Of a stretch of DNA of 64,000 nt, positions 706 to 60,382 are shown one piece after another. Below the pieces are notes generated by a model. It saw only the letters and a list, made by a program, of their open reading frames with translations. It ran no database searches and was not told the DNA's origin. Source of the DNA: Mobula hypostoma (Eukaryota). How positions within the stretch are numbered: the first letter of the stretch is position 1; each line of letters opens with the position of its first letter. The translations under genes and the position numbers were made by a program. The stretch lies in the NCBI RefSeq assembly GCF_963921235.1, contig NC_086108.1:2542001-2606000 (forward strand), written 5' to 3'.

Positions 706-2571
706 CCATCATTGTAGACCCCCCCTTCCCCCCCCCGCTCCTAACAGCAAGTCAACTTTGATTCCATTTTGCATTGTCACCCTCAATCCTTACAGATGAG
801 CTTGCCCACAGAAGTTTGACAAAGGTCTTGCTAACATCCTGTGGGCAATGTCTACACCACTGCCCTCGTCAATCTTTTCAGTCACATTCTCAAAATATAA
901 ACTTAAGTAAGACATAATCTCCCAAAAAGTCATTCTGATTTTCCCTAGTAACTCCTTACCTTTCCAAATGTAAATATGGCCTGCCCACAGAGTCCTTTCC
1001 TGTGGGTGCTATGGTACCATATACTATTACAGCACAAGTGATGCAGGTTCAGTTCTGCTGCTGTCTGGAAGGAGTTTATACGTTCTCTCCGTGACCACTT
1101 GTGTATCCTCCGAGTGCTCACAGTTTCCTCCCACGTTCCAAAGGTTAGTAACATTGGTCCCATGGGTGTAATTGGTTGGCAGGGGCTTGTTAGGCCAGAA
1201 GATCCTGTTACTGTGATGTACTGCTAATTAATTTTTTTTTAATTCAGAGCACTGTAATTCCCTGACTTGTCCTTACAGCCCTCCTTAAACATCAGCCTTC
1301 CCTCAGTCTTTGGTATTTTGCCATTGATAAAGGAAAACACAAAACATCTTTCCCAGGGCTTCAACAATATCCTCCTTTACTTCCCACAACGTCCCAGGAT
1401 GATGAAGGGTCATGGCCCGAAACTGGTTATTCCTTTCCATGGATGTTGCCTGACCTGCTGAGTTCCTCCAGCATTTTGTGTGTGTTGCTCTAGATTTCCA
1501 GAATCTTTTATCTCTTAAAATAATCTGGTTAGAGGTTTATCCATAAAACATAGGAGCAGAATTGGGCCATTTGGCCCATCAAATATGGTCCTGCCATTCC
1601 ATCATGGCTGATTTCTACCCCATTCTCCTGCCTTCTCCACATAATCTTAGACATCATTACTTATCAAGAGCCTATCAATCTCCATTTTAAGTATACCCAA
1701 TGACTTGCCTCCATAGCCGTCCATGCCAATGAATTCCACAGATTCACCACTCTCTAGGTAAAGAAATTGCTCCTCAACTCTGTTTTAGGGGGATGTCCTT
1801 CTACTTTGTGCTCTTCAAGTCTGCCGATACCGCCTTCATAATGTCAGTATGCTTCAGGATATCATCGTTCTCTTTTCTGAACCCACTGGCGTCCAGGTCC
1901 TTAAAATGCAAACAAAGTATTCATTAAGGCCTTGCCCATCTCCTGTGGCTCCATGCAGATAATATAGGTATCTGTTTTCAAAACGTTCCATTACCAGAGA
2001 AAAGAACGTGTCTCCAAATTAGTTCTATCTGAAAAACTTGGCTGTACATCAACTTCTTCCCTGCTAATTACGCATTTTACTGGAGGGGATTTCACATGGC
2101 AATGTTAAAATAAAACAACCAGAAATGCATCATAAATATTTGTAATCATACTGGTCTCCATCAAGGGAGAGACAATAGTCCAGTAGAAGTGGATGTAAAC
2201 AATAATTTAAACTCCTAGATGTGTTTTTGTGTTAATGAAGAAGCCTCTGAGACCTCCTGAGACATCCACGACAACTACTACATTTTGGAGTTGTGATTTT
2301 TAAAAAACGTTATTTGCAGTTTAGTAATATTTGTAAACTAATGGCTTTTGTCTTAATTGGATTTTGAGTTTGTTATCAGACAGGCAAATAGAAATATTTC
2401 ACCAAGTAAGATTGGTGTCCTAATCCCACTGGAAGGCTACGGTAATAGTGGTTAGCACAGCAATTTACAGCGCCAGTGATCGCCAATTGGGGTTCAATTC
2501 CCAACACTTTCTTCAAGGAGTTTTTTATATTCTCCCCAAGGTGTCTGGATGCTGCGATTTCCTCTCACATT

Positions 2572-3047
2572 CAGAATCAAAATCAGGTTTAATATCGCTG
2601 GCATATGTCATGAAATTTGGCAACTTTATGCAGCAGTACATAATAATAGAGGGAAAAACCTGTGAATTACCCCAGTAGGTAGGTGTGTGTGTGTATCGTG
2701 CAATAAAAAAGTAATGAGGTTCATGGTTTTAATGTCCATTCAGAAATTGGATGGCAGAGGGAAAGAAGCTGTTCCTGAATCGTTGAGTGTGTGCCTTCAG
2801 GCTCCTGTACCTCCTTACTGATGGTAGCAATGAGAACAAGGATTTTTTTAAAAACCTGAGTGATGGGAGTCCTAAATGATCGACGCTGCCTTTTTGAGGC
2901 ACCATTCCTTGAGGATGTCCTGGATACTACAGAGACTAGTGCCCATGATGGAGCTGGCAAAGTTTACAACTCTCTGCAGCCTACTTCAATCCTGTGCAGT
3001 AGCTTCTCCCCCACCCACCCCATACCAGATGGTGATGCAGCAGGTTA
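2572..3047 (-). mobile_element. Rex1-like LINE 3' end
   Basis: Similar to the Rex1 3' end at 25474-25860; (GATTCT)-type tail at about 2572-2586. Confidence 0.7.
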
Positions 3048-3982
3048 GAATTCGATGGACATGGGAGGAAGCATGGCGACACTGGAGGGCTGCCTCGCAC
3101 TGCACCGGATCTTTCCATGTTTTGATGTACAGAACATGTGACAAAGCTAGCCTTTCGTCTCCTCTCTGCACCTTGTGGCACATTCAGTGGCAACCTTGCC
3201 ATCTCTTTAGCATTTCTTGTAGTGTTTTTTATATATATATATTGCTAGCTCAACGCTCAACCCAGCACAGATGGAAAGCGTGCAAGGAGCCGGCTGGATT
3301 TGAACCTTGGACCATTTGCCTCAAAGTCCAGTGCTGATGCCACTATGCCACCAGCTGGTACTTCATCTTTCTTTACATCCCTATTTTTTTGGTTTATTCA
3401 TGTTCCACAGGGTTGGGGAATTGAATCGATTAGCATAAACACAGGATGCAATTCTTATTTCAGTATTAATGCAGCATAAATTCCAAATGAGCACATCTTC
3501 AGATATCCTATAGCCTGTCTGCCTCTGGAAACAAGTTCATATGGATCGCAATCCCTCCCCACCATCTGAGTATATTTTTCCTTTCCTATCCATAATGGGC
3601 AGGAATCTTGCTAGCACTCTCCCTGTTCAGCAATGCCATAATTGCAATGTCCAGACAATTCAACATTCCCAGAAAAATCTGAAGTATTTGTGGGACATAC
3701 AGAGAGGGAATATGTCTCAGTCTGCACAGCCTAATATATTATAAAACAGGAGCATTGTTCCTCTGAAACTGGTATAATCCTGTGTTTATAGACAACAGTG
3801 TTAATTTAATGCAGTCATGTTTGCTTAATGCTGTAAATGCTTTAGGCATGAGAGGAACACTAGCCCTCTCCCATCAGCAACTAAATTAAGCCATTATGGC
3901 AGTACAGTCCAATTTCACTAGCAAACTGTGTTTGACCAGACCAATACTGAGCAATATCATACCCAGTGTACCTAGTATAATA

Positions 3983-6333
3983 AATGGCTGTTGTGTGTTC
4001 TTCATGCTGGATGTTGGAGTCCCGGGAGATCCAGAGACTCCCAGGGAGCTACATCTGCGTGAAGTGCATCCGGCTGCAGCTCTTTGAAGACTGTGTTAGG
4101 GATCTGGAGCAGCAGCTGGATAACCTTCAGCTTGTACAGGAGAGTGCGGAGATAATCGATCAGAGTTATAGGGAAGTAGTCAGATCAGGTTGGAAACGGA
4201 TCTCAAGGGAGTCAAGTTGTTGAATGCATATGGATTGGCTTTTTAGAGCAGTTAGTTGTTGAGCATACTAGGGGATCAGCTATGCTGGATTGGGTGTTAT
4301 GTAATGAACTGGACGTGATTAGGGAGCTTAAGGTAAAAGAACCCTTAGGAGACAGTAATCACAATATGACTGAGTTCAACTTGAAATTTGATGGAGGAAA
4401 AGTAAAGTCTGACATAGCAGTATTTCATTGGAGTAAAGGAAATTAGAGTGGTATGAGAGAGGAAAGTAAATTGGAAGGAGATGCAGTTAGTGGGAAGGCT
4501 GAGGATTAGGAAACCTTTAAAACCCTACAGAGAGCAACTGAAAGAATCATTAGGAGGGAAAAGATGAAATATGAAAGCAAGCTAGCAAATAATATCAAAG
4601 TGAATAGTAAAAGCTTTTTCATGTGTGTTAAAAATAAAAGAGAGTGGATATAGGACCACTAGAAATTGAGGCCAGAGGACAAGGAGATGACAGGTGAACT
4701 AAATGAGTATTTTGCATCAGTCTTCACTGTGGAAGACGCAAGCAGTGTGTCAGTTGTTGAAGGGTGTGAGGGAAGAGAAGTGGATGCAGTTACTATTTCA
4801 AGGGAGAAGGTGCTCAAAAAACTGAAAAACCTAAGGGTACATAAGTCACCTGTACCAGATGAACAGCACGCTAGGGTTCTGAAAAAGGTAGCGGTAGAGA
4901 TTATGGAGTCATTAGTAATGATCCTTCAAAAATCAATGGACTCTGGGATGGTGCCAGATGACTGGAAAATTGCAAGTGTCACTCCACTCTTTAAGAAAGG
5001 AGGACGGCAGCAGGAAGGAAATTATAGACCAGTTAGCCTGATCTCAGTGGTTGGAAAGACATTGGAGTCAATTGGTAAGGATGAGGTTATGGAATACTTG
5101 GTGACACAGGACAAGATAGGGCAAAGTCAGCATGGTTTCCTTAAGGGAAAATCCTGCCTGTCGAACCTGTTGTAATTCTTTGAGGAGATTACAAGCAGGA
5201 TAGATAAAGTGGATACAGTCGATGTTGTGTATTTGGACTTTCAGAAGGCCACACATGAAGCTGCTTACCAAGTTAAGAACCCATGTATTACAGGGAAGTC
5301 ACTGGCATGGTTAGAGCATTGGCTGATTGGTAGGAGGCAGCAAGGGGGAATAAAAGGATCTTTTCTGGTTGGCTGCCAGTGACTAGTGGTGTTCTGTGGG
5401 GTCGGTGTTGAGACCGCTTCTTTTTAGATGATGGAATAGATGGCTTTGTTGCCAAGTTTGCAGATGATGCAAAGATTGGTGGTGGGGCAGGTAATGTTGA
5501 GGAAACAGGTAGGCTGCAGAAGAACAGACAAATTAGAAAAATGGGCAAGGGAATGGCAAATGAAATACCATGTTGGAAAGTGCATGGTCTTGCACTTTGA
5601 TAGTAGAAATAAATGTGCAGACTATTTTCTAAACAGGGAGAAAATCCAAAAATCTGAGATGCAGAGGGACTTGGGAGCCCTCGTGCAGAACACCCTGAAG
5701 GTTAACTTGCAAGTTGAGTCGATGGTGAGGAAGGCAAATGCAATGTTAGCATTCATTTCAAGAGCTCTAGAATACAAGAGCAGGGATGTGATACTGAGGC
5801 TTTAGAAGGCACTGGTGAGGCTTCACCCTTGAGTATTTTGAACAGTTCTGGGCTCCCCATCTAAGAAAAGATGTGCTGGCATTTGAGAGGGTTCAGAGAA
5901 AATTCACAAGGATGATTCTGGTAATGAAAGGGTTCTGTACTTGCTGGAATTCAGATGGATGAGGGGGAATCTCATTAAATCCTTTTGACTGTTGAAAGGC
6001 CTAGGCAGAGTAGATATGGAAAGTATGTTTCCCATGGTGGGGGAGTCTAGGACGAGAGGACACAGCCTCAGGATAGAGAGGCGTCCATTTAAAAGAGGGA
6101 TGCGAAGAAATTTTTTAGCCATAGGGTAGTGAATTTGTGAAATTTATTACCAGGTTGTTGGTATATTTAAGGCAGAGCTTAATAGGTTCTTGATTGGACA
6201 TGGCATCAAAGGTTCTGTAGAGAAGGCCCGGGAGTGGGGCTGAGGGAGGGAAGTGGATCAGCCATGATTGAATGGTGGAGCAGACTTGATGGGCCAAATG
6301 GCTTAATTCTGCTCCTGTGTGTTATGTCTTATA
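3983..6333 (+). mobile_element. Internally deleted CR1/HER1-like LINE (ORF1 zinc-finger start joined to degenerate ORF2 RT and 3' tail)
   Basis: ORF1-like MAVVCSSCWM...YICVKCIRLQL...LEQQLD; ORF2 motifs DWKIASVTPLFKKG, NYRPVSLISVVGK, QHGFLKGKSC, KFADD; CR1-type 3' end; many stops and frameshifts. Confidence 0.9.
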
Positions 6334-6455
6334 TACACTGTGTTTGACTAGAACAAAACTGAACAAGATCATGTACACTGTGTGTCTGACCAGAACAAAA
6401 CTGAACAAGATCATGTACACTGTGTGTTTGACCAGACCAAAGCTGAATAAGATGA
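6334..6455 (+). repeat. About 42-44 bp minisatellite (3 copies), with related units at about 3926-3960 and 7076-7110
   Basis: TACACTGTGT(GT)TTGACCAGAACAAAACTGAACAAGATCATG repeated in tandem. Confidence 0.8.
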
Positions 6456-6467
6456 TATAAACACAAG

Positions 6468-7065
6468 GATGCAATGTCGAGGTTTTATAAAGCACTGGTG
6501 AGGCCTCACTTGGAGTATTGTGAGCAGTTTTGGGCTCCTTATCTTAGAAAGGATGTGCTGACACTGGAGAGGGTTCAAAGGAGGTTCATGAAAATGCTTC
6601 AAGGATTGAATAGTTTGTCATATGAAGAGAGTTTGATGGCTCTGGGCCTGTACCCACTGGAATTAATAAGAATGAGGATTGACCTAATTGAAACCTATCG
6701 AATGTCGAAAAGCCTCAATAAAGCGGATGTGAAGAGGATGTTTCCCATGGTGGGGGAGTCAAAGACCAGAGTACAAAGCTTCAGAATAGAGGGGCGACCT
6801 TTTAGAACGGTGATGAGGAGGGTTTTCTTTAGCCAAAGAGTGGTGAATCAGTGGAAGTCATTGCCGCAGGCAGCTGTGGAGGCTAAGTCTTTATGTATAT
6901 TTAAAGCAGAGGTTGATAGATTCTTGATTGGTCAGGCCGTGAAGGGACACAGGGAGAATGCAGGAGATTGGAGCTGAGAGGGGAAATGGATCAGCCATGA
7001 TAAAATGGTGGAGTAGACTGGATGGGCCAAATGGCCTAATTCTGCTCCTTTATCTTATGGTCTTT
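6468..7065 (+). mobile_element. 5'-truncated CR1-like LINE 3' end
   Basis: ORF 6474-6977 (YKALVRPHLEYCEQFWAPYLRKDV...FFSQRVVNQW) is a CR1 ORF2 C-terminus, followed by the 3' UTR. Confidence 0.9.
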
Positions 7066-7869
7066 TCACATGTAATGTGTTTGATCAGACCAAAGCCGAG
7101 CAAGATCACAGGATTGTTTAATACTTAATGTATATTGTTTATCCATGTATTCTCAACAACACTTAAATGGATGTAGGGTAGCGTAGCTGTTAGTGTAACA
7201 GCGCCAGTCTTAAGGAGTTTGTACATTCTCCCAGGGACCACATAGGTTTTCCTTCAGATGGTCCTGCTTCCTCCCACATTGCAAAGATGTACGGGTTAGT
7301 AGTTGAGTGAGCTGTGGCCATGTTCCGTTGGCACCAACAGCAGGATGATACTTGCAGGCTGCCCCCAAGCACTTTCAGATTCTGTTGGTTATTGATGCAA
7401 ACAATGCATTTCACTGTGTGGTTTGATATACATATGGTGAGTAAAACTAAGCAGGGTTCAAGTTAATGAATTGAGAACTTTTTCCCAGTTTGAAACATGT
7501 TAAAATCTTTGTTGTTTTAAGAATGCTATACAAATGCAAATAGTTTTCGCACTTTTGTATTATATAAGAGGAAAAATAGGAGCAAAACAGCAACTTCACA
7601 TCTGTGGAAGTTATTCTGTCTCTTCATGGAATCTACGAACATTACATTTATGGACGTTGTATTGTCTCCCCAACACATCTCTTGACATCGCACGGACTCC
7701 CCGGCACGTCCAGTGACCTCGCATGGACTTCCCGTCACATCTGTGGATATTATACCGTCTCTTTATTTAATTTATTCAAATTGCCGTCAAACCTCTTTGC
7801 ATCTTCCTTGCAATCCATGATGCCGCTTAGTTTTGTCATTAGCAAACTTAGAAATGTTATTATCACTTC

Positions 7870-8880
7870 ATAAACATGAGAGATCCTGCTGGTGCTGGAA
7901 ATCCAGAACAACACACACAAAATACTGAAGGAACTCAGCAAGTCAGGCACTATCTTTGGAAATGAATAAACAGTTGACATCCCAGGCTGAGACCCTTCTT
8001 CGGGACTGGAACGGTAGGGGGAAGACATCAGAATAAAAAGGTGAGGGGTGGAAAAGGAGGATAGCTATAAGGCGATTAGTGAAGCCAGGCCAGTGGGAGA
8101 AGTCAAGGACTGGAGAAGAAAGTGCACTGTAGAAGAATGGGAAGGACAAGGGGACCGGGGAGGCGGTAGCATTAATAGGCAGCTGAGAAGAGGTAAGAGG
8201 CTATAGTGGGCAATAGGAAAAGAGTGGGGGGGGGGGCTTTTTGTTAACCGGCAGGAGAAATCAATCAACATGCCATCAGATTGGAGGCTATCCAGGCAGA
8301 ATATAAGGTGTTGCTCCTCCACACTGAGAGAGTCGACTCATCGTAGCATAAGAGGCGGCCATAGATCAACCTGTTAGAACAGGAATGCGAATAGGAATTA
8401 AAATGATTGGCGCTGGAAAATTCCGCTTTCGCAGATGGAGCAGAGGTGCTCATCAAAGCAGTCACCCAATTTACGATAGGTCTCACCAACGTGGAGGACG
8501 GTCGGATACAATGGATGACTGACAAATGGTGCTACATCACCTGGAAGGACTGTTTGGGTCCCTGAGTGGAGGTGGAGGAGGAGATGAATGGCCAGGGGTA
8601 GCACCTTGGCTACTTGCATGGAATCACGGAGGGAGTGATCACTGCGGCAAGTGGAGAGTTGGGGGGAAGCTGAAGATGTGTTTTGTAGTAGGATCCCTTT
8701 GGAGATGGTGGAGATTGCAGAGAATGATGCACTGGATGTGGAGGCTCATGGGGTTGGTAGGGAAGGACAGAAGAACTCTATCCCTGTTAAGGCGACAGGA
8801 AGATGAGGTGAGCGCTGATGTCTGGGAATTGGAGGAGCTGCGGGTCAGGGTAGCATCAGTGTTGGAGGAATGGAAACCCT
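7870..8880 (-). mobile_element. Penelope-like element 3' fragment (GIY-YIG endonuclease remnant plus pLTR)
   Basis: Minus-strand VGETYRKLGDCFDEHL, ANHFNSYSHS, EEQHLIFCLDSLQSDGM; pyrimidine tract; degenerate hammerhead at about 7968-8010. Confidence 0.8.
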
Positions 8881-13104: not shown

Positions 13105-13122
13105 GTATTATGCTAACTGCTA

Positions 13123-13342
13123 ACACACACAGAATGCTGGAGGAACTCAGCAGGCCAGGCAGCATCTATAGAAAAAAGTACAGTTGACATTTTGGGCTGA
13201 GACCCATTTCGGGCCAAGAAGGGTCTCAGTCTGAAACGTCAACTGTACTTTTTTCCATAGATGCTGCCTGGCCTGCTGAGTTCCTCCACCATTTTGTGTG
13301 TGTTGCGTGGATTTCCAGCATCTGCAGATTTTCTCTTGTTTG
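13123..13342. mobile_element. Inverted (palindromic) Penelope pLTR insertion with 13-bp TSD
   Basis: ATGCTAACTGCTA at 13110-13122 and 13343-13355; arms of about 85 bp are reverse complements around about 13207-13220. Confidence 0.85.
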
Positions 13343-14075: not shown

Positions 14076-15300
14076 TTACCAATCATAAACTGGGTTATGC
14101 AACCACTAGCACCAGGCAGACAATCTATGAAGAGTATTAATAGATGCTGGGTCACTCGTCTTTTAAAGACACTGCCCAGAAGAAGGTAATGGCAAGCCAC
14201 GTCTGTAGAACTGTTTGCCATAAACAATCATGGTCATGGAAAGATCCTCATTGCCTACATCATACGACCCAGCACTTAATGAATAAGCAACATATGTTCA
14301 AGTCTCTTAAACTCGTGAGCTCTGACTCACTGGTGAGGGTACTGTGCAACTAGCCCTCTGAATGTGTAAGTCTCCAATCTTCAAATATTTACTTAACCAG
14401 CAGAGGCCTCTTAATTGACCTCTGTATGATCCCATTATCTATTTGAAATAATGTGTATATTAACTTTAAATGTTACGTGTTTAACCTTATAAAGGTTCCT
14501 TTCACCTGCACAAGATATTTGCTGGTGATATGTATCTGCATTGCCAATCATTATATTCTGTTGCATGGGACAGGAATATAAAGGAAGTGAATAGAAATTT
14601 GGAAAGAACCTTGAATTGCTTCATGAGTAGAAAGCTCCTTGAGAGGATTATCTCTTTTCCCTTTCATTGATCGGCTAAACGTGCTGATTCATGACTGCAG
14701 TGTAGATAGCAGCTGAACTCTGAGAATACTAACAATGGACACTAAGAGAGCAAAATGCCATGCAGCCCGTCAGGTCTGCTTGGCCATTCAGTCGTTGTCA
14801 TCACTCTCAACCTCGTTCTCCTGCCTTCTTCCGGTAACCTTTGACACTTGACTGATTTAGAACCTATCAACTTCTGCTAAATATAAACATGAGAAAGTCT
14901 GCAGACGCTGGAAATTCAAAGGTGAAGCGTTTGCCCAGTTGGACAACAATGAAGGTCCTTCATCTCTGGCGATGTTCAGGGTTTCCTTCATTGTGTCAGT
15001 AACTTCCTCTGGAAATCCAAAACAACATATACAAAATGCAGGGTGAACTCAGCAGATCAGGCAGCTTCTATGAGAAGAAGTAACAGTCGACGTTTCAGGC
15101 CGATGCCCTTCTTCAGAACTGAAGGAAGAGGGAAGATGCCGGACTTGGCCTCTACAACCATGTGTGACAATGAATTCCACAGATCACCACCCTCTGGTAA
15201 AGAAATTCTTCCTCATCTCTATTCTAAAGGGACATCCTTCTATTCTGAGAATGTGCACCTGATCCACTATTGGAAACATCCTCTGTATGTCTATCTAGGC

Positions 15301-16262: not shown

Positions 16263-16984
16263 TAACTAATGTTTACACCTTGGGGTAATCTTCTGTTGAG
16301 AAAGATTACTTTTCTAATTTTACAGCCTTCTTCATGAAAGCTTGCTACGTGGCAATTAGTTGCTATATATTTCTTTGTCACAACAGTGTTATTTTCGGTT
16401 AAAGCTGGCAGAGGCCATCTGTGAATGGAGAGGAGTTGTTGCCTGTATAAAGCTGTGTGCATTTTTTGAGTTCACTTTCTCAGTACAGTGGATTCTGGTT
16501 AATTGGGACACATTGGGACCAGTACATTTTGGCTCAATTAGCTGAGTTGCATGGAACTAGTTAAAAAGACAAACAAAAAAGACAAACTACTGGGCATTCA
16601 ACCAGTGTGCAAAGGACAACAAACTGCAAATACAAAAAGAAAGAATAATAATAATAAACAAATAAGCCATAAATATCAAGAACATGAGGTGAAGAGACCT
16701 TGAAAGTGAGTTCATTGGTTGTGGGAACAGTTCAATGATGGAGCAAGAAAAATTGAGTGAAGTTACCCCATTTGGTTCAAGAGCCTGATGGTTGAGGGAT
16801 GATAACTGTTCCTGAACATGGTGTTGTGAGTTCTGAGGCTCTTGTACCTTCTTCCTGATGGTAGCAAGAAGAAAGCATGAACTAGATAGTGGGGCTCCCT
16901 GATGTAAAAATGCCTAATGCCAAATAACTTGAATTTCCTGTCTATGTTAGTAGCTAAATACTATCTTGCTTCCTTTTTCCTCAT

Positions 16985-24552: not shown

Positions 24553-24637
24553 GTGTCGTGAAATTTGTTGACTTTGCAACAGCACTATAATGCAATACAT
24601 AATAATAGAGGAAAAAACTGTTAATTGCAGTAAGTAT

Positions 24638-39956: not shown

Positions 39957-40196
39957 TTGATTCCCCTCCGTAGACACTGCCTGACCTGCTGAGTTCCTCC
40001 AGCATTTTGTGTGTGTATTAGGAATTTGCTGTGCTGTGTTGATCAGGGCATGACATGCAACAAAAAAACAACACTCATTTATAGAGAATAAAGAGTTATA
40101 TAAAATTAAATTAAAAAGTTAGAAATTAAAGTACAGATATGAAGTAAAATGTGTTTAAATATGTAATTACCGACTTGGTTAACTTTGTTATTACAG

Positions 40197-43270: not shown

Positions 43271-45449
43271 TTGAAACTCTCTAGTGAGCCAGGGTTTTGT
43301 TCTAAGGCAGTTTAAAGAGGCATGTACCACCGCAAACTTAGCCAAAGCTTTAGGCGTAATCTGTAAACCGATTTAATCTGATGCTGTTGCAAGTATTAGA
43401 GGCATGTTCTATATTGTCCATTCTCAGTCCTTTTGGACCACTAGTATTCTGCAATTAGGTTAAAAAAAAGAGGATTGTGATTGTGCATGCCACTGAAGGA
43501 GCTGCCAAGACCAAAACCAGATGTGTGTGTGGGGTCAGCTGATAAGGCTGGATCCTCACTTGAATAATGAGGTTCACTTTCCTAATTTGTCAGCAAACTA
43601 TTATCAATAGATCAGAACATAGATGGAGCAGAATTAGGCCATTTAGCCCATTGAGCCTACCATTTCACCGAGGCTAATTGATTAGCCCTGTCAACCCGAC
43701 TCTTCTATTTAAACAACGGAGAGCACAGAGAAAGTCGCAGGCTGGTGGTGCCCCCCTTCACTGGAGGAACAGTAATAAAACTGATCCACCAAGCAACATC
43801 CCTCCTCCCATTAATTTTGAGGTGTTCATTCTTATCACTTTCAAGTAGCTAGTTTGCGTTTATGCAGTTGGCCTTTTCTCTATCACCTTGAAACTTTGGA
43901 GACAACTTCTACAAAAATCCGCTGCCAGCTATGTGTTGACTACAGTTACAACACTGGTGATCTGTGACTTAGATTAGCACTGGTAATGTTCTGTTCTCCC
44001 TCACCTTTTGTGGTCCAATATACAGGCAACCGTGAGGTTCTACAGATGCTGGAAATGCAGTGCAGTGCGCACACAAAATGCCGGAGGAACTCAGCAGTCA
44101 GGCAGCATCTAGGCAGAGGTTCCCAACCTATTTTATGCCATTAGACAAGGGGTCTGTGGACCCCAGGTTGGGAACCCCTGATCTATGAGGAGGAATTACT
44201 GTTTATTCCTCTCCATCAATGTCACCTGGCCTCAGTTCCTCAAGCATTTTGTGTGTGTTGTAAAAGACAATGTCTCCTTATTTTCTTACCCACCACCCCC
44301 CCCGCCAACTTCAGTATTATTTTTATCTACTTTACCATCAGATCACTAAATATTTTATGTGTTAGTATTATGGTCAACCTTGTGACTCGGGAAGCCACCA
44401 GATTAAGCCCTTGCCGTTTGCCACTAGACCTTTGAATAAGTTTTGATCTTTTTTCCTGCTTGGGGAAAAGCAGAAAAACTTCCATCAGAGTTGTCTAATT
44501 GGCCGAGTCATATTTGCAAGGCTGACCCACAAGGAGTCATTGTTTGGCCAGTGATTTACAACCTGTCGAGTACCACATCAGTACTGAAGGCAAGCTGAAT
44601 GTCTGGATAAACTTAAGAGCAACTTGTTCAACCTTCCAGCTTGACATTGAATTTCCTCTTCAAAGATTTCCATAAAACATAGATGCAGAATTATCCTTGC
44701 AGCCCATCGAGCCTACTCCACCATTTGATCACGGCTGATTCTTTTCTCCTTCTCAGCCCCATTTTCCTGCCTTCTCCTCATAACCTTTGACACCCTAACT
44801 AATCAAGAACCTATCAACCTCAGCTTTAAATATACCCAATGACTTGGCCTTCCCAGCCATCTGTGGCTTTGAATTCCACAGATTCACCACCCTCTGGCTA
44901 AAGAAATCCTTGCTCATCTCTGTTCTGAGAGACATCCCTCGTTTCTGAGGCTGTGCCCTCTGATCCTAGATTTCCCCCAGCATAGAGAACATTCTCTCCA
45001 CATCCACTCTATCGAGGCCTTTCAATATTCAATAGGTTTCAATGAGCTCACCCCTCATTCTTCTGAATTCCAGCAAGTAGAAGCCTAGAGCTCCTCATAC
45101 TGTACATTAACCCTTTCTTTCTTGGGATCATTATGAATCTCCTCTGGACCCTCTCCAATGCCTGAACATCTTGTCTGAGATGTGGGCCAAAAACTGCTCA
45201 CAGTACTCCCAAGTGGGTCTGACCAAACTCCATCTATACATTCTCCATCATCTAAAATAGATTATATAGTACAGTACAGGCCCTTTGGCCCACAATGTTG
45301 CGCTGATCTTTTAACCTACTCCTAAGATTCATCTAACTCTTCCCTCCTACGTAGCCCTCCATTTTTTTTTCTCAAGAGTTAAGTTCCTTGCATGCAGAGA
45401 CATGATTCTGCAGATGCTGGAACTCTTGAGCAACACGCACACACGCGCG

Positions 45450-45480
<31 letters not shown>

Positions 45481-45674
45481 AGGGGGAACTCAGCAAGACA
45501 CGCCTCCCTCTTCATCACCTTCATCTGGTTCCCCTCCACCTTCCCTTTCTGTCATGGGTCACTCCTTCTTTATCAGCCTTTTACCTCTTCCCTCTCACAT
45601 GTCCTCGCTGATCACCTATATTCCTTCCCCTCGCCTTCTCTCCCCCACCACCTTATTCTGGCTCCTACCCTTTC

Positions 45675-45712
45675 CAGTCCTGATGAAGGGGCTTGGCCTG
45701 AAACGTCGACTG
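45675..45712 (+). ncRNA. Hammerhead motif (core intact, weak stem II)
   Basis: cagtc-CTGATGA-aggggcttggcct-GAAA-cgtc-gactg. Confidence 0.55.
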
Positions 45713-47512: not shown

Positions 47513-47850
47513 AAACTGGAAAACCCATCCCTAAATAGAGGGTGTGGGGTACAACACCATTTATCAGCTACTTATAATGCTATCCTAACATCTCTATCCT
47601 GGCATCTCCACAGCAGTTCACACCCCGATTCATGCAAAGATTAGTGACCCTCTCATTACCTCTGCGACTCTTAACGACCCTCATGTGATTGCTGTACCTT
47701 TAAACAACTCGGAAAACTACCCGCCATAGATCAGAACTGACGAAGCCTCTCAGATGAATGGCGAAACGTCTTCTAGTCAACACAGCAAGTCCAGTTGATT
47801 CACTACTGCTTGTTTTACAATGATCTGGATAATTGAGAACCTTCAGAGAC
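47513..47850 (+). mobile_element. Third Penelope family: endonuclease C-terminus plus pLTR with hammerhead (47733-47774)
   Basis: KLENPSLNRGCGVQHHLSATYNAIL; agaa-CTGACGA-a-gcc...ggc-GAAA-cgtc-ttct. Confidence 0.75.
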
Positions 47851-50348
47851 ACTCCTCATATGTTAACCCTTTCTTTCCTGGGATGATTCTCGTAAACCTC
47901 CTCCGGACCATCTCCAATGCCAATACATCTTTTCTTAGATAGAGGGTCCAAAACTGCTCACAATACTCCAAGTGCAGTCTAACCAATGCCTTATAATTCA
48001 TCAAGCATTACATCCTTTCTTTTATATTCCAGTCCTCTCAAAATGAATGCTAACATTGCATTTGCCTTCCTCACCAGCGACTTAACCTGCAAGTTAGGGA
48101 ATCCTCTGTGAGGACTCAGGATACCCACTTTCATGTAGCCTTGCATGTCGTTTAACCCCTGATGCCAGCCGTGGTGTTGACAGGGTCTGCGGAGTGTGAT
48201 TGGAGCAAGTAGGGATGTTGCTTTCAGCTGCTGTGATGGGGCTGAGCTTGAAACTGCAGTGGAGACTCAAGGCAGCTGGAAAGAACATTCAGGGTTCTGC
48301 ACAGTGCACCTGGAACACAAGCATTACATTCAACCACTCAAGCCCATTACACCATTTAATTAGATCGTGGTGTAGCTATATTCATGGTGAGGATTGTTGC
48401 AAACTCCATCCTCAGGGTTGTTTCACTCACAAGTGCGCCCTCTTTGACAGTGCATGGTTAGCAGACTTCTCGTTAGCTTACTTACTTAATGCCCGTAATG
48501 CCGCTGGCATTTAGGGCAGCAATGAAGGTCCTCATTGGTTGCTGAACTCATGAACCTGCAGGACCAGTGGACCACTCTTAGCCTGGCCTCTACCCTTTGA
48601 CCTGTTTGGCATGGGTGACCCTACCAAGAGCCAAAGCATAAAGCCCTGACTCAGCCAACATAGCTCTCCGGATAACTGAGGCACACAAACCGCCAAACAC
48701 AGACAAGGCTTTGAGGTTCTCATTAGCATTGAATCATAAAGACAGGAGATTCTGCAGATGCTGGAAATCCCAAAGCAACACACACAAAATGCTGGAGGAA
48801 CTCAGAAAGTCAGGCAGCATCTGTGGAGGAGAATAAACAAGTCAACGTTTCGAGCTAAGATACTTCATCACCACCTGATGAAGGACCTCGGCAAGAAATA
48901 TCGACCCCGCAATAGCATTGGCCACCACACGAAAACTGATTGTTTCCCCTTGTATTGGTACCCACATCTGCTTTTGCAAGACCACAAGGCATAGGAACAG
49001 AATTAGGCTACAGGGCCCAACAAATCTTCTCTGCTGTTCCAACGTGGCAGCTTTATTATCCCCATTCTCCTGCCTTCTCCTCATAACCTTTGACATCCTT
49101 ACTAGTAAGACCATAGGAGTGCAAATAGGCCATTCAGCAGAGACTTAGTCATTTTTAGCATGTGCCGAGGCTCAAGCCAAAGACTTAAAGGACCCATATG
49201 CAGAATCAGCAGAAAAGTATTTGAATGGGAGGTGGTTTACTGAAGAACTGAAAATCATCATAGCTTCAATTTCCCACTTGAGCGTGCGTTGGTAGAGTCT
49301 GCAAGCCATTCTTAATCCTTCACCTGCAGAGCAATGGCAGGTTCTTGCTTAAACCACTGCCCACCAACTTTTTTAAACACCTCATAAGCAGAAGAGATTC
49401 TGCTGATGCTGAAAATCTTGAGCAATGCACTCAAAACGCTGGAGGGAATTCATCAGGTCGGGCAGCATCTGTGGAGGGGAATAAAATGAGGGTTATGTAG
49501 GATTGATTTTGGAAGATCAGCCCAACATGGAGGGCTGAAGGGCTTGTACTGTGCTGCACTGTTCTATGTTCTAATCTAGGGGTTCTCAACCTTTTTTATC
49601 CATAGACCCCTACCATTAACTGAGGTGTCCGTAAACTATTTAAGTTTTTGGCCAAGACTTTTGACTGTTCATTCCCCTCCATCAATGCCACTTGACTTGC
49701 CGAGTTCCTCCAGCATTTGTGTGAGTATTAAGTACTTAGCTGGTTTTAAAATTTACCTATTCACTTACACAGGAGATAATTTATAATTGTCCCAGGCTAT
49801 ATTAATGGTACTGCTCCACCGTGTTACATTTGGGAAGATGTTAAAGGAAGGATGGTAATTAAATTCCATCAATCACATTTTTGTAAGTGCCATGCCCTAC
49901 TTTTTATAACAAACAAAAGTTTACCATTTAATCTACATGTTAATGACTGAATCCCAGCTCACCTGTAAGCCACATTGAGAGTCATTGCCTTTGTAAATTT
50001 CCCCATGTGTATAATATGTGTTTCTTCTAAATCTATTTTTCTACAACATTAGGTGTGTCCAGTGTCAATTAGGGAAAATAAATTGATTATGTTTTTTTTC
50101 CACCCAAATAGTAAGTTATTTATATACTATAGTTGCTTGGATCTTTCTAATGTCCCAACAATAATAAATGTATGAAAACTCTACTGACTGTATGTGCATG
50201 TCTCTTGTATCTGTAGTACTGAACTCCACCTGCCAGAAGCTGAATCCTTCTTATTATCTAGAACAGAAGTTGTGCTATAATAATGTAACCCTCTCTTTAG
50301 AAAAGGGCTCATTGAATATATATCAGACCATAGTGTGCACGTAATCAT

Positions 50349-50980
50349 TCGACGTTTCGGGCCAAGACCCTTCGTCAGGACTAACTGAAAGAAGAGATGG
50401 TAAGAGATTTGAAAGTGGGAGGGGGAGGGGGAGATCCGAAATGATAGGAAGAAGACAGGAGGGGGAGGGATGGAGCTAAGAGCTGGAAAGTTGATTGGGA
50501 AAAGGGATACGAGGCTGGAGAAGGGAGAAAGAAAGGGGGAGGGGAGCCCAGACAATGGGCAAGGAGTTATAGTCAGAGGGAGAAAAGAGAGAGGAAAAAA
50601 AGGGGGGGAAATAAATAATAAATAAATAAGGGGTGGGTATTATTATTTATTTTCCCCCCTATAACTCCTTGCCCATCCTCTGGGACCCCCCCCCCCGGCT
50701 TTCTTTCTCCCTAAGCCTCCCGTCCCATGATCCTCTCCCTTCTCCAGCCTCGTATCCCTTTTGCCAATCAACTTTCCAGCTCTTGGCTCCATCCCTCCCC
50801 CTCCTGTCTTCTCCTATCATTTCGGATCTCCCCCTCCCCCTCCTACACTTTCAAATCTCTTACTATCTCTTCTTTCGGTTAGTCCTGACGAAGGGTCTCG
50901 GCCCGAAACGTCGACTGTTCCCCTTCCTATAGATGCTGCCTGGCCTGCTGCGTTCACCAGCATTTTTTGTGTGTGTTGGT
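50349..50980. mobile_element. Head-to-head inverted Penelope pLTR pair, each arm with an intact hammerhead core
   Basis: 50349-50630 is the reverse complement of about 50637-50914, with indels. Confidence 0.85.
50881..50916 (+). ncRNA. Consensus minimal type I hammerhead ribozyme (GUC site after 50912)
   Basis: agtc-CTGACGA-a-gggt ctcg gccc-GAAA-cgtc-gact; a core-intact antisense partner lies at about 50349-50383. Confidence 0.85.
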
Positions 50981-51229
50981 AAAATAAAGTATGGTTATAA
51001 ACCAAGGTATGACAATAATTATAATTACTTCTGCTCCCCTTCCTTTCCAGTCTTGGCCCACAATGTCCACTGTTAATTCCCCTTGATAGATGCTGCCTGA
51101 CTTGCTGAGATCCTCCGGCACTGGGGTGCATTGCTCCTGATTTCAGCACCAGCAGAATCGTTGGTATCCCCCGGGGAAATCTTTTCATTCAGGCAAGACT
51201 ACAGGCAGTTGAACACACATAAATACAAA

Positions 51230-51990
51230 AAATTCTGCAGATGCTGGAGATCCAGAGCAAATCACACAAAATCCTGCAGGTCAGACAGCATCTATGGAGA
51301 GGAATAAACACTCGAGATTTAAGACCATGACTGGAATGGGGAAGATCCAGAATAATATGGTGAGGGAAAGGGAAGGAGGATAGCTGGAAGGTGATAGGTG
51401 AAGCCAGGTGGGTGGGAAAAGTGAAGGGCTGGAAAGGAAGGAATCTGATGGGAGAGGAGAATGGACCGCAGAAGAAAGTGAAGGAGAGGACCCCAGGAGA
51501 CGTGATAGGTAGGTGAGAAGAGGTAAGAGGCCAGAGTGAGGAACAGAAGAAGAGGGGAGGAGGAGGGAATTTTTTTACTGGAAGGAGAAATTGATATTCA
51601 AACCATCAGGTTGGAGGCTACCCCGATAAAATATAAGGTGTTTCTCCTCCACCTTGAGGGTGGCCTCATCTTGGCACAAGAGGAGGCCATGGGCTGACAT
51701 GTTTGGAACGGGAATGAGAATCAGATTAAAATGTTTGGCCACCAGGAAGCCCCACTTGTGGTGGATGGTACGGAGGTGCTCGACGAAGCGGTTCCCCAAT
51801 TTATAACAGGTCTCAGCAATGTAGAGGAGGAGGCTGCATCAGGAGCACCAGACACAATAGTTGACCCCAGAAAGACTGGGGTCTCGCCTGGAAGGACTGT
51901 TTGGGGCCCTGAATGGAGGAGAGGGATGAGGAGAATGGGCAGGTGTAGCACTTTGGCCGCATGCAGGGATAAGTGCCAGCAGGAAGATTA
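51230..51990 (-). mobile_element. Penelope-like GIY-YIG fragment plus pLTR
   Basis: GVNYCVWCS; GNRFVEHLRTI...VAKHFN...EEKHLIFYRGSLQPDGLNINFS. Confidence 0.8.
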
Positions 51991-52443
51991 GTGGGGAGGG
52001 ACGATTGACAAGGTGATTGAACACATAGATAATCGAGTCACAAGAACCACACAGCACAAATAGCAGTGTGGGGCACCACAGTCAGCATAGTGGTTAGCTG
52101 GCACTATCGCAGCTTGGACTGTCAGGAATTCAGAGTTCAAATCCTGCCACTGCCTGTGAGAAGTTTTTGTATGTCCTTCCCGTGACCACATGGGTTTCCT
52201 CCAGGTGCTCTGGTTTCCTCCCACAGTCCAAAGACATACCGGTTTGGAGGTTCATTTGTCCTTGTAACTTGTCCCGTGATTGGGCTAGGGCAGTGATTCC
52301 CAATAGAGGCAGGCAGTGCTGCAACCTCGCCACCCCTGAAGGGGGTGGTTATGTGTCCTTAAGGGGCATTAGGAGAAATAGAAGTTGTTGGGGGCATTCA
52401 AGATTATTGGGGGGGGGCAGTAAGCAGCACCCTAACTTGAGAC

Positions 52444-52960
52444 TTCTAGGGTGCATCACAATCTGGTATGGAAGTCGTCCTGTCCAAGACTGGAAGAAGC
52501 TGCAGAAGATCGTGAACACAGCCCAGCACATCACACAAACCAATCTTCCGTCCTTGGACTCACTTTACACTGCACACTGTCGGAGCAGTGCTGCCAGGAT
52601 AATCAAGGACACCACCCACCCAGCCAACACACTGTTCGTCCCTCTTCCCTCCGGGAGAAGGCTCAGGAGCTTGAAGACTCGTACGGCCAGATTTGGGAAC
52701 AGCTTCTTTCCAACTGTGATAAGACTGCTGAACGGATCCTGACCCGGATCTGGGCCGTACCCTCCAAATATCCGGACCTGCCTCTTGGTTTTTTTGCACT
52801 ACCTTACTTTCGCTTTTCTATTTTCTATTTATGATTTATAATTTAAATGTTTAATATTTACTATCGATTTGTACTCCAGGGAGCGGGAAGCGCAGAATGA
52901 AATATCGCTGTGATGATTGTATGTTCTGTATCAATTGTTTGGCGACAATGACGTATGAAG
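52444..52960 (+). mobile_element. Rex1 3' fragment, same young subfamily as 33820-37712
   Basis: Nearly identical to 37192-37712 including the 3' UTR. Confidence 0.9.
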
Positions 52961-52964
52961 TGTA

Positions 52965-53885
52965 AAGAAGTGCTCACACTGTTCTCAAAATGGATACCAG
53001 TATTTTAAAATCAATTCCTCTGAGATAAACTCTGTAGCTCATCATATTGATGAGATGAGTGAAGATATTCAGTATCAACTATGTACAGAGCTACAGAAAA
53101 CAGAATTTGGGACACAACTGCTTGAGTTAACTGTGCGAGACAACAAGGCATTGCTAATGGCATATGGCCAGTTGATCAAAAATGGAAAAGTTTATGAAGA
53201 GATACTCTTTTGTAAAATGCTTAAAATCAACAGAGAGTCAATCTACAACGAGCTCAAAATGTATGTTGAGGATAAAAGTATTCTGATTAGGAACATGGTT
53301 TCTTGTGTAATAGATGGAGCACCGTATATGACAGATCGCCATGCTGGTTTACCAGCAATCCATTGTGCAATTCATCGTCAACATCTCACAGCCAAAAACC
53401 TTAGCTAGTGACTTCTTCAAGAATGAGTCTTGTAATATCTGCTATCAACAAAATTCAAGCTCATCCATTAAATAGCAGGATAGTCCACCAGTTACGTCAA
53501 GATAATGGTGAAGAGTTTGAATGCTCGCTTCTTCACACTGAAGCACATTGTCTGTCAAAAGGCTGCTGCCAAAAATGCTTCTTTGATTTTTTTTGATACT
53601 GTGGTTGAATTTTTGCTCAAAGTGAACAAGAACCTGGAAGCAAAATTGAACTTCGATGAAGATTTGATATACCTAGCTGATCTCTATGACAAAATGAACA
53701 TTCTAAATATGAAACTGCGGGATGAGAATTTCAATTTAATCCAGGCAAAAAGTGCAGTGTTCACTTTCATCAGAAAATTGAAAATATATAAGCAAGACAT
53801 TGGGAGAAGAATGTTCTCACAGGTTCCCTACATGGAAAGTACGGCACTCTCTTTCACAGACAGTGATTTGCAAGAGTACTGCTAG
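52965..53885 (+). pseudogene. hAT (Charlie/Buster-like) transposase fragment
   Basis: IDEMSEDIQYQL, DGAPYM, IHCAIHRQHL, YLADLYDKMNILNMKL; stops and frameshifts; no TIRs seen. Confidence 0.85.
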
Positions 53886-55588: not shown

Positions 55589-55950
55589 GTGAGTGAAGTT
55601 ATCCACACTGGTTCAGGAGCCTGATGGTTGTGGGGTAACAACTGTTCCTGAACCTGGTGGTGTGGGACCTGAGGCTCATTGTGGTGAGTGAAGTTATCCA
55701 CACTGGTTCAGGAGCCTGATGGTTGTGGGGTAATAACTGTTCCTGAACCTGGTGGTGTGGGACCTGAGGCTCATTGTGGTGAGTGAAGTTATCCACACTG
55801 GTTCAGGAGCCTGATGGTTGAGGGGTAATAACTGTTCCTGAACCTGGTGGTGTGGGACCTGAGGCTCATTGTGGTGAGTGAAGTTATCCACACTGGTTCA
55901 GGAGCCTGATGGTTGTGGGGTAATAACTGTTCCTGAACCTGGTGGTGTGG
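55589..55950. repeat. 95-bp tandem repeat (about 3.8 copies) made from a Rex1-like 3' end
   Basis: GTGAGTGAAGTTATCCACACTGGTTCAGGAGCC...GGGACCTGAGGCTCATTGTG repeated; identical ORFs offset by 95 nt. Confidence 0.9.
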
Positions 55951-58322
55951 GGTCTAGGGCTCCTGTACCTCCTGCAGAATGGTAGCAGTGAGAAGAGAGC
56001 ATGGTCTGGATGACGGGGACTTTGATGATAAAGTTGCTTTCTTGTGGCAGAGCTCCATGTAAATGTGCTCAATTTCTCCAGCGTTTTGTGTGTCGCTTTT
56101 GGGGTTCCCCAGTGTTATTCCTCTCCGCGACATGGCGCACCAAGCGGCAACCTGCCGTTTCTTTTTGTCTTTTTTTTTACGAGACCGAGTTGCTAGCTCG
56201 ACTCTCAACCCAGCACGGATGGAAAGCGTGCAAGGAGCCGGCTGGGTTCAAACCCACACCACTCACCCTGAAGTCCGGTGCTGATTCCCCGGCCTGCTTA
56301 ACCCATGGACCGATGCCATTAAGCAAAGGGTAAATATCGCCTGCTTTCAGTGGGATATTTATCATATTACTGTGTAAATAATTTAACGTGTTATAATTTA
56401 AAATAGGAATAACAGGCCGGAAAATCTAGCCCGGTTGCGCCAAACTCTCAGACGTGCTGGTTTATCGGAGTTATCAGTTACTTTGAACTGATTTCTTCTC
56501 TCCCAGTTTCCCTTTAACAACTGTGTCTGAACCCTTGTTAATTTCACCCTAATTCCCACATCCTGTCGCATCAGATGCCGGCTGGGGACACTGGATCGTC
56601 GGAGAGTGGAAGAGGAATACTGGCCGGCGATCCCTCCGACCACACGGGGGCGGCGTTTCCCCTACTTCGCTCACGGGATGCGGGGGTCACTAGCCGTACC
56701 ACCGCCTACTGTCCGTCGGCGCTCCCACTGACCGGACCCGTAGCTGGGCTGTCCAGAGGCGGTTAGGAGGGAGTCAGCTGGCTGCGTAGCTGCTCATAGA
56801 GCGAATAACATTTTTTAAAAATTTGTCCTGACTCGGGGCATCCACAGTCAAAGTCAGAGTAAAGTTTATCATCACAGTGTCTTGCATATACAACCGAGCT
56901 ACATTTTCCTAGTGGAATTAGAATGGGGTTCGATATCACCGGTACATCTCGTGAAATTTGTTGTGTTTGTGGCGCAGTTCAGTGCGATAGACAATAATAG
57001 AAAAAGGACTGGGAAATACAGAATATATATATAATAGTTAAACTAAATAAGGAGTGCAAAAAAAACAAAAGAGTAGTGAGATAGTGTGGAGTCAGCCCGA
57101 AACGTCGACTGTACTTTTTTTCCCCCCATAATTGCCGCCTGGCTTGCTGAGCTCCTCCAGCATTTTGTGTTGCTCGGATTTCGGGCATCTGCAGATTTTC
57201 TCTTGTTTGTCAGGTAGTGTTGACGGGTTCAATGTCCATTCAGAAATCTGCTGGCAGAGGGGAAGAAGCTGTTCCTGAATCACTGAGTGTGTGTCTTCAG
57301 GCTCCTGTCCCTCCTCCCTGATGGTAACAATGAGAATAGGGCATGTCTTGGGTGATGGAGGAGTGGTCCTTAATGATGGAAAAACTATACAGAAACAGCT
57401 GACCAATGTGCAAAAGAAGACAGATTGTGCAATTAAAAAAATACCGAGAACATGAGTCGTGGCGTCGTTGAAAGTGAGTGTGTAGGTTGTAGAATCCGCT
57501 CAGAGTTCTGGCAAGTTAAGTATCCGTGTTGGTTCGGGAGCCCGGTGGCTGTTGTGTAATAACTTCCTGAACCTGCTGGTGTGGGACCCAAGGCTCAGTT
57601 AGTCCTGATGGACTAGAGAGAAGAGAGATGGTGGAGGGGCCTTCTTGTGGCACCATTCCTCGCAGATGTGCTCAGTGGTGGGGCAGCCACCCTCCCCCTC
57701 ATCTGGCCTCACCTGTCCCCTGCCAGCTTCCACTCCTTCCCTCTTATTCTCCTCCAACCCCCTTCCAGTCCTCGGCCCAAAACGTTGCCTGTTTATTCCC
57801 CTTCACAGATGCTGCCTGACAACCTCCGGCACTTGTGTGTGTGTTGCTCTCTCACCCAGGACGAGCTGGTCACAAAAGATCTAGGGCAGGATTTGATCTC
57901 ATTTCGTCTCCCTCGTTGTGATGAGGGCATTGCATCAAGATCACAAGACAGTTTGCGGATGCTGGAAATCCAGAGCAACACACACAAAATGCCGGAGGAG
58001 CTTAGCAGGTCAGGCAGCATCTATGGAAATGAGTAAACAGTCAACATTTCAGACTGAGACCCTCCAACAGTACTGGAAAGGAAGGGGAAGATGTCAGAAA
58101 AAGAAGGGTGGAGATGGGAGGGGAAGGAGGCTAGCCGGAAGGTGATGGGTGAAGCCAGGTGGTGGGAAAGGTCAAGGGCTGAAGAAGAAGGAATCTGATA
58201 GGACAGGAGAATGGACCATAGGAGATAGGGAAGGAGGAGGGGACCCGGGGGAAGTAATAGGCAGTGAGAAGAAGTGAAATGTCAGAGTGGGGTGGGGATT
58301 TGTTTACTGGATGGACACATCG

Positions 58323-59022: not shown

Positions 59023-59499
59023 CCATCAGGCTGGAAGGTGCCTAGATAGTATACTAGGTAATGGTGGAGGAACTCGGCAGGCCAGGCAGCATCTATGGAA
59101 AAATAAACAGTCGCTGATTCAGGCCGAGACCCTGCTTCAGGACTGAGAAGGAAGGGGAGACGTCTGTGTCAGAAGATGGGGCGGGGAGGAAGAATTACAG
59201 GGTGGCAGGTGATAGGGGAAACCGGGAGAGGGGGAGTGGGGTGAAGTGAAGAGCTGGGAATTCGATTGGTGAAAAAGATAAAGGGCTGGAGAGGGGGGAA
59301 TCTGACAGGAGCGGCCAGAAGATCACGGGAGATACGGAAGGTCGAGGAGCACCAGGGGGAGATGATGGGCAAGCAAGAAGAGACGGTGTGAGAGGGAAAC
59401 AAGAAAGGGGAATGGTGAAGGAGAGGAGGGGCAGTCACTGGAAGTTCACGCCGTCAATATGAAGTGTTGGTCCTCTAGCCCGGGGCTGGACATTGTCAC

Positions 59500-59780: not shown

Positions 59781-60038
59781 AGGAGGCAAAAATCAGACTT
59801 TGCACCTCGTTGGAGTGGGAGCGTTGAAAGCGATTAGCTATTAACATGGGCTGGGATGACTGAGTTTCTTTATCATTCGTCTCGGAGCCTCCTTCCCTTT
59901 TAGACATTAGGTAAGACCGTCAGTAGCTTTTCCGAGCTGGTCAGTCATGCTGCGGCGCCCAGGGAAACGGTTAGGAGTGTGCTTAAACGGCAAGAAAAGG
60001 AAGAAGTTAAACTTTGTGGTCTTCGCAGAACTCTGCAG
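59780..60038 (+). other. Probable non-coding first exon(s) of a downstream gene
   Basis: Two strong donors AG|GTAAGAC at 59911 and 60039 just downstream of the promoter motifs. Confidence 0.5.
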
Positions 60039-60346
60039 GTAAGACTAGGTTGCCTCTCGCTACTTTGCTGAAGTATCAGTCGCTGCTTTATAAACTCTAG
60101 TACTGCCACGGTCTACGCATGTGAATGTTTCTCCTGCCAAGATACGGACTTGGACTTCCAGATGGAATTGATGAGTGGGTTAATAGTGAGCTCGTGGTCG
60201 GAATATGGGGGAAAACGATGCCGCTTTGTGCACAGCTAGTACTGATGGCAGGATAAAAGTTGGCTGGAACGATGTACGCGATCGAATGAAATGGGGCAGA
60301 GGTACAAGGTGCAAGACTCACACCAGCAGGTTCAGGAACAGCTGGG

Positions 60347-60382
60347 AGTCCTGATGAAGGGTCTCCGACCGAAACGTCGACT
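60347..60382 (+). ncRNA. Hammerhead motif in a pLTR (variant stem II)
   Basis: agtc-CTGATGA-ag-ggtc tcc gacc-GAAA-cgtc-gact. Confidence 0.55.

Follow-up and report, generated by a model that had tools for sequence, protein, structure and literature searches.

Minimal hammerhead motifs dispersed in the Mobula hypostoma genome very probably descend from an autonomous Neptune-type Penelope-like element

Minimal hammerhead ribozyme motifs recur throughout a 64,000-nucleotide stretch of the Mobula hypostoma genome (contig NC_086108.1, positions 2,542,001 to 2,606,000; hereafter the window, numbered from its first nucleotide). We are highly confident that these motifs are the hammerhead of the pseudo-long terminal repeats (pLTRs) of one autonomous, recently active Penelope-like retroelement (PLE) of the Neptune type, with a unit of 3.5 kb, whose dispersed copies are 5'-truncated and decaying neutrally. 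Their identity as the minimal hammerhead ribozyme (min-HHR) of PLEs is close to certain, it is somewhat favored that some full-length transcripts are cleaved in vivo, and the lone copies are probably silent for the most part. As judged from their sequence, the dispersed motifs are genuine signatures of minimal hammerheads, and their cleavage is predicted.

Insertions end about 65 and about 103 nt past the cut site and are truncated at random at the 5' end. An inverted head-to-head partner is acquired by many of them, and neutral decay follows. In the course of events that we propose, the two 3' ends would correspond to two internal starts of reverse transcription, as described for the element of the anole discussed below. 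The ribozyme would matter only in source elements. A read-through transcript holding two copies could pair as a double hammerhead, joined by the ACGU palindrome and an exchange of stem I strands, and cleavage of this structure, probably protein-assisted and slow, would release unit-length RNA. Because they have neither a stem III nor a partner, lone copies would mostly be inert passengers.

To identify hammerheads in the window, we used the pattern CUGANGA-N10-30-GAAACGU with 100 shuffled sequences as a control. Eight matches were obtained, and 0.02 are expected from the shuffles. Seven form family A, with C3 at 15116 (−), 34118 (+), 39924 (+), 45680 (+), 50378 (−), 50885 (+) and 60351 (+). 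The eighth, at 47737 (+), represents a separate hammerhead family (C), and a third, decayed family (B) lies at 21961 (−). All eight matches have GUC or GUU as the NUH cleavage triplet and carry the ACGU palindrome (15.1-16.1) without a helix III loop. The original prediction for this stretch had described a minimal type I hammerhead with an extra A after A9 and a loopless palindromic stem III, and parsing of the cores bears this out. Additionally, CUGANGA...GAAACGU is present at all seven places where an intact copy had been called, and the predicted cleavage position, after 50912, is correct. The term intact holds for all seven cores but for both stems in only four copies (15116, 34118, 39924 and 50885); stem I is down to 2 bp in the 50378 copy, and stem II, read in its canonical register, contains a mismatch in the 45680 and 60351 copies. 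The hammerheads of the window are as follows.

50880–50917, plus strand: best minimal hammerhead of family A, with a 5-bp stem I, a 4-bp stem II and the palindromic ACGU; predicted cut at 50912/50913.
34113–34150, plus strand: minimal hammerhead with intact stems and G10.1-U11.1, in a copy at 33987–34248 that is 93% identical to a full-length element and has the long 3' end.
39919–39956, plus strand: minimal hammerhead of an older subfamily, stems I and II intact.
15084–15121, minus strand: minimal hammerhead in which both stems pair (with G-U), inside a copy at 15009–15133.
45675–45712, plus strand: hammerhead with intact core and a stem II mismatch; its inverted partner is a fragment at 45404–45503 (−).
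60346–60383, plus strand: hammerhead with intact core and a stem II mismatch; the copy, 60347–60487, is truncated just upstream of stem I.
47733–47774, plus strand: second hammerhead family (C), with stem I AGAA/UUCU and a longer stem II.
21923–21966, minus strand: third hammerhead family (B), stems I and III decayed.

The repeat that carries family A is present in the window as 35 merged BLAST fragments, and all 11 sites that had been listed as decayed proved to be pLTR fragments of it. GIY-YIG endonuclease remnants lie on the same strand and upstream of six decayed copies (8007−, 17116−, 24423+, 27128−, 51218− and 61400−). Thus, the claim that copies sit downstream of such remnants is correct for these six, while none is found directly upstream of the seven core-intact copies.

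The longer copies identify the parent. Upstream of the hammerhead they encode a GIY-YIG endonuclease, a CX4CxxC linker (seen in L082, L078-L080 and L033-L036) and a reverse transcriptase (RT) with YIDD. A protein search yielded 79,193 candidates, of which 83 were scored, and a frame of 1,043 aa was found in 9 of the 83. Two loci, L081 and L082, were fetched as full-length examples, both selected for the length of this frame. Each is arranged pLTR-ORF-pLTR (ORF, open reading frame) with same-strand hammerheads in both pLTRs, 3,514 and 3,512 bp apart, respectively, and the pLTRs within an element are 99.6% (L081) and 98.9% (L082) identical. In the 1,043-aa frame, which opens about 60 nt past the cut site, Pfam places RVT_1 at residues 534-696 (E 3e-5), together with a C-terminal GIY-YIG domain at 946-1020 (E 1e-3). 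A sequence search of the PDB gave no matches. In the PLE copy at L036, the RT part is inverted relative to the endonuclease part, as in twin-priming inversions.

At genome scale, we worked from pattern counts, from 82 loci and from the first 100 matches listed on contig C1. In the 3.48-Gb genome there are 88,258 exact matches to the core pattern, or one per 39 kb, against 11 matches to the reversed control; six of the matches fall in the window. The original prediction's figure of one motif per 3 kb as potential self-cleaving sites was overstated: it includes decayed fragments, and most of the motifs are decayed, stand alone or are held in head-to-head hairpins. A 34-letter form of the young subfamily occurs 36,060 times. 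The non-C2.1 pattern gave 7,322 matches vs 3,674 in its control, so that about half are due to chance, and most of those listed are family A variants. Four hammerhead families share the core, an extra base after A9, G10.1-Y11.1 and ACGU, and differ in both stems. Families B and C are present in the window and the fourth elsewhere in the genome (L067-L073); L073 carries two family D motifs, on the same strand and 120 bp apart.

We then compared the stems across families in an alignment of 12 rows, hand-picked as family-like from the non-C2.1 pattern matches. L041, L060, L074 and L076 were dropped beforehand for little or no stem I, as were L053, L072, L075 and one L073 motif. In this alignment, 84% of stem cells are paired with 21 double changes, none of 500 shuffles paired as well, and slid registers reach 26-41%. 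Position 10.1-11.1 is G-C in six of the 12 rows and G-U in the other six. The covariation in stems I and II that had been set as a test of the hammerhead reading is thus present across families and absent within family A, as would be expected if its copies were dead on arrival.

To assess selection, we counted single changes relative to the 36,060 intact 34-mers. The inactivating G8A change was found 1,565 times (4.3%) and C17U 1,652 times (4.6%), so that G8A is no rarer (p 0.13); a change that destroys activity has thus reached the frequency of a tolerated CpG change of equal depth, and the copies decay neutrally. G1.1A was found 1,907 times (5.3%). The tolerated C7U change is in excess (2,601, 7.2%), which fits source lineages with U7, with decay of older U7 copies contributing too. 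By hand count of the 100 listed matches, U11.1 has been amplified and G12A, seen in five, has not. Because the only amplified changes are tolerated ones (U7 and U11.1), selection appears to act on source elements only.

Several observations weigh against our main reading. An Rfam scan of the window at E≤1 returned nine matches with no hammerhead family among them. The lone motifs do not fold with better energy than shuffles (z −0.76 to −2.0 for eight motifs), and the case therefore rests on the core and on comparison. Stem covariation was not found within family A (27 rows; 79 and 44 of 500 shuffles as high), and RNAalifold on these 27 copies recovered stem II alone and no conserved structure in the tail. 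The cross-family test leans towards structure, because its rows were hand-picked and its core was fixed by the pattern. The most expanded subfamily, with G10.1-U11.1 in 74 of the 100 listed matches (hand count), departs from the conserved G-C. Additionally, G1.1A lies slightly above C17U (p 2e-5), so that decay is not perfectly symmetric. In a nearest-neighbor model the double hammerhead is at −16.7 kcal/mol vs −34.1 for the mispaired duplex. As for the element itself, both Pfam scores fall under the gathering cut-offs (RVT_1 24.4 vs 29.6 bits, GIY-YIG 19.7 vs 22.6), and the Neptune label is assigned from motifs rather than from a tree, with Nematis sharing the linker. The Rfam matches to miRNA and snoRNA families near 50520-50745 are far under their gathering scores and arise from an inverted copy pair located there.

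Contigs from the sequencing runs of four other organisms carry the family as well. The share of depth with G10.1-U11.1 is 63% and 52% in runs X1 and X4, and in X9 and X14 it equals that of G12A decay. Dominance of U11.1 here and in two organisms, but not in two others, marks a lineage-specific burst.

The state of the RNA template can be read from the insertions. In 99,866 copies the sequence runs unbroken from the tail across the cut site to GAAA, and 1,512 passed a filter for the lack of an upstream core, which random flanks pass at a rate near 0.29. These counts imply that uncut RNA was the template of about 95% or more of insertions. This invites the view that the motif, although descended from a PLE hammerhead, is no longer catalytic in this lineage and has been retained for structure or for protein binding, a view that we regard as unlikely but as a serious alternative. 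It would accommodate the use of uncut RNA and the G-U closing pair of the dominant subfamily, and it is in line with the anole element, in which hammerhead mutants are reported to have no effect on insertion in vitro (PMC11167929), and with Naiad PLEs, described as spreading without canonical hammerheads (PMC8557442). In contrast, the core is invariant over the 12 rows and four families despite their differing stems, although it was partly fixed by the search pattern, and A8 and A12 stand at the level of decay while the amplified changes are all tolerated. G10.1-U11.1 is also found in published PLE motifs, as far as these were compared.

The ends of insertions were determined at 60 loci, of which 51 parsed as family A, with 5' extents taken from L001-L030. 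The 3' end lies at +57 to +72 past the cut site in 27 of the 51, at +101 to +106 in 13, and elsewhere in 11. The 5' extents are continuous, from 4 nt to 1,503 nt (the locus edge), and reach into the ORF. The insertion signature described for PLEs combines random 5' ends with fixed 3' ends that may bear a tail (PMC8557442, PMC3846280), and such ends leave a hammerhead in nearly every insertion here. Thus, the copies are, from their ends, 5'-truncated insertions of an autonomous Neptune-type PLE. The original prediction had instead taken them for non-autonomous pLTR copies behaving like a ribozyme-bearing short interspersed element (SINE); they have common 3' ends, but their 5' ends vary and intact autonomous parents exist.

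A SINE- or retrozyme-like non-autonomous pLTR family with its own RNA, mobilized in trans by the PLE, is in our view very improbable. Such a family could explain why eight of the 30 loci stop no more than 18 nt upstream of the core, above a smooth truncation curve, and why the window holds an internally deleted copy (39687-40016); both facts count against simple truncation. Two same-strand pairs less than 1 kb apart occur among the 100 listed matches, and bioRxiv 10.64898/2026.07.22.740005 is reported to derive tandem retrozymes from pLTRs, with one chondrichthyan included. However, the 30 loci show neither the fixed unit length nor the shared 5' end expected of a SINE, since their extents run continuously into the ORF, and short copies share 98-99% identity with longer ones. 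Same-strand neighbors within 4 kb are not above chance (4 vs about 5.5), and the sole tandem array of the repeat in the window lacks a hammerhead. Head-to-tail tandem units each with a hammerhead, as in retrozymes, were not found among the 15 tandem-repeat rows of the window. Internally deleted derivatives do exist, as at 39687-40016, and no family of them was seen among the loci examined.

Among the 100 listed matches, 21 neighbors lie within 4 kb: 13 head-to-head, four tail-to-tail and four on the same strand, with 2.8 expected per class. A transcript across a head-to-head pair contains one sense and one antisense copy, which makes a double hammerhead impossible; two sense copies would be supplied only by tandem or full-length elements. 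In the predicted fold of 50341-51000, the motif lies within the duplex, and in five of eight predicted monomer folds the core mispairs with the cleavage strand. The dimer interface measures 14 bp. These results bear on the notion that dispersed copies self-cleave in host transcripts, by dimerization in trans or with the help of proteins, and so shape host RNA processing. We consider this the least probable alternative: although the 36,060 identical copies offer many possible partners, the interface has this length, and contigs in the thousands align to the repeat (their four source runs were guessed to be RNA but may be DNA), G8A at the neutral CpG rate indicates copies neither kept active nor purged, most of the eight monomers are predicted to mispair the core and head-to-head pairs to bury the motif in duplex, and published min-HHR monomers are reported to show no detectable cleavage and multimers little (PMC4209133). 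The anole motif is reported to have required protein (PMC11167929).

Breakpoints might hint at a further role. By hand count, about 25 of the 100 listed copies without an upstream core break at G1.1, vs two per neighboring position. A microhomology of 3-4 nt is present in about 17 of these 25, and a microhomology site 4 nt away takes about 11 breaks; microhomology by itself may thus account for the peak. With considerable doubt, we suggest that the genome could be a fossil record of in vivo cleavage, in which a minority of templates is cut, RT runs off at G1.1, and the cDNA end, complementary to stem I, switches template to create a head-to-head junction. If true, the PLE hammerhead would have a role in building the inverted structure typical of the element.

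The copies of the element in the window are the following.

50660–50978, plus strand: 5'-truncated PLE copy holding the 50885 motif, with 3' untranslated region (UTR), hammerhead and the short 3' end.
50346–50598, minus strand: inverted head-to-head partner copy, with a hammerhead at 50346-50383 whose stem I is broken; forms a long hairpin with the plus-strand copy.
39687–40016, plus strand: internally deleted copy, the pLTR tail and first ~50 ORF codons fused to the 3' UTR and hammerhead.
24018–24556, plus strand: 5'-truncated copy with the endonuclease C-terminus (24017-24106), 3' UTR, a G12A hammerhead and the long 3' end.
7861–8879, minus strand: old truncated copy, GIY-YIG remnant at 8255-8879, decayed hammerhead near 7970-8011.
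16981–17913, minus strand: old truncated copy, GIY-YIG remnant at 17554-17913, decayed hammerhead near 17081-17122; plus-strand fragment at 18160-18241.
27128–27696, minus strand: old truncated copy, hammerhead lost, GIY-YIG remnant at 27450-27696.
51218–52001, minus strand: old truncated copy, hammerhead mostly deleted, GIY-YIG remnant at 51584-52001; plus-strand fragment at 51050-51159.
60672–61971, minus strand: old truncated copy, hammerhead lost, endonuclease remnant at 61825-61971; its 3' segment has been amplified into the 57-bp tandem array 60707-61536.
13122–13341, no single strand: head-to-head pair of short copies, each truncated within the hammerhead.
48734–48908, no single strand: decayed head-to-head pair.
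57092–58250, no single strand: three decayed or partial copies (57092-57208 +, 57771-57850 + and 57931-58250 −).
59060–59358, minus strand: decayed copy with core changes.
22027–22233, minus strand: decayed copy.
1400–1505, plus strand: decayed copy, stem III region deleted.
44034–44261, no single strand: two 3'-end fragments on opposite strands, without hammerhead.
49378–49730, no single strand: two 3'-end fragments on opposite strands, without hammerhead core.

The 57-bp minisatellite at 60707-61536 (14.6 copies, 98% identity) is built from the part of the PLE that immediately precedes the first 3' end, lacks the hammerhead and probably expanded at the DNA level after insertion. Tandem arrays of 95 bp at 55589-55951 (3.8 copies) and 38493-38676 (1.9 copies) derive from another dispersed repeat. 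A low-complexity open frame of 376 aa without a Pfam match (40167-41297, +) is followed by a frame ending in a signal-peptide-like stretch (41233-41646, +); both are possibly host exons. Two frames at 52959-53885 (+), also without a Pfam match, resemble a decayed hAT-type transposase. Frames similar to an endonuclease and an RT occur in decayed LINE remnants at 35046-37491 (+) and 4663-6977, and the segment 37192-37491 has a 93% copy at 52443-52742. The LINE tails of this genome appear similar to those known from cartilaginous fishes. A hairpin at 37712-37778 (+) matches mir-9256 at 41 bits, where the gathering score is twice as high, and is probably an inverted repeat.

The original prediction had stated that PLEs carry minimal type I hammerheads thought to cleave as dimers, which is correct, and the motif agrees at every point with the published PLE consensus (Cervera & De la Pena 2014, PMC4209133). 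As in the metazoan PLE pLTRs described there, the motif has CUGANGA, an extra base after A9, G10.1-Y11.1, GAAA, a palindromic 15.2-16.2, no loop III and a short stem I, and a genome holds several families, mostly as single motifs from truncated PLEs. Family C (47737) closely resembles fugu, cichlid and Xenopus PLE motifs of the supplement. In contrast, stem II of family A is 4 bp, where theirs are 4-8 bp in the part of the table that was compared, from which the family A sequence is absent. The 88,258 exact matches compare with about 4,000 in coelacanth and about 9,000 in X. tropicalis (PMC4209133), although the descriptors differ. Dimer work by Lunse et al. 2017 is cited in PMC6765202, and PMC6155905 restates the PLE link.

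For PAc, a Poseidon element of Anolis (Frangieh et al. 2024, PMC11167929), a pLTR hammerhead is described as well; RT is reported to start at two internal sites, mainly on unprocessed RNA, and cleavage to be assisted by protein. Its two 3' ends, a 30-40 nt tail apart, lie downstream of the hammerhead and overlap the start of the reading frame, as here. The PAc frame opens inside stem II, in contrast to about 60 nt past the cut site here, and the CX4CxxC linker marks the present element as of Neptune or Nematis type. With the Neptune clade (Craig et al. 2021, PMC8557442) it shares the RT, a CX2-5CxxC linker, the C-terminal GIY-YIG, 5' truncation, partial tandems, an inverted 5' copy and the optional tail; the linker also occurs in Nematis, so that assignment here is by motifs. 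Non-LTR retrozymes (PMC7229834; bioRxiv 10.64898/2026.07.22.740005) resemble it in their type I hammerheads, high copy number and relation to pLTRs, but are tandem repeats of fixed units, whereas the copies here are solitary or inverted, differ in length and lack stem III. For axolotl, as many as 120,000 canonical hammerhead motifs are reported (PMC7229834); with one exact core per 39 kb, the density here exceeds that of axolotl retrozymes (one per ~235 kb) about sixfold, with different counting methods. At the level of sequence, then, the element carries every PLE min-HHR feature that we examined and looks like neither a SINE nor a tandem retrozyme.

PLE pLTR hammerheads and their single copies across genomes have been in print since 2014 for other animals. 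By title or abstract, the level at which the whale shark papers were covered, the literature on cartilaginous fishes gave no report of this hammerhead family. The present family is of value as a test bed, since its roughly 100,000 young insertions and intact 1,043-aa parents let the role of the PLE hammerhead be asked from genomic data. The counts suggest that uncut RNA is used for insertion in vivo, in agreement with the in vitro report on the anole element, and that source elements alone are under selection.

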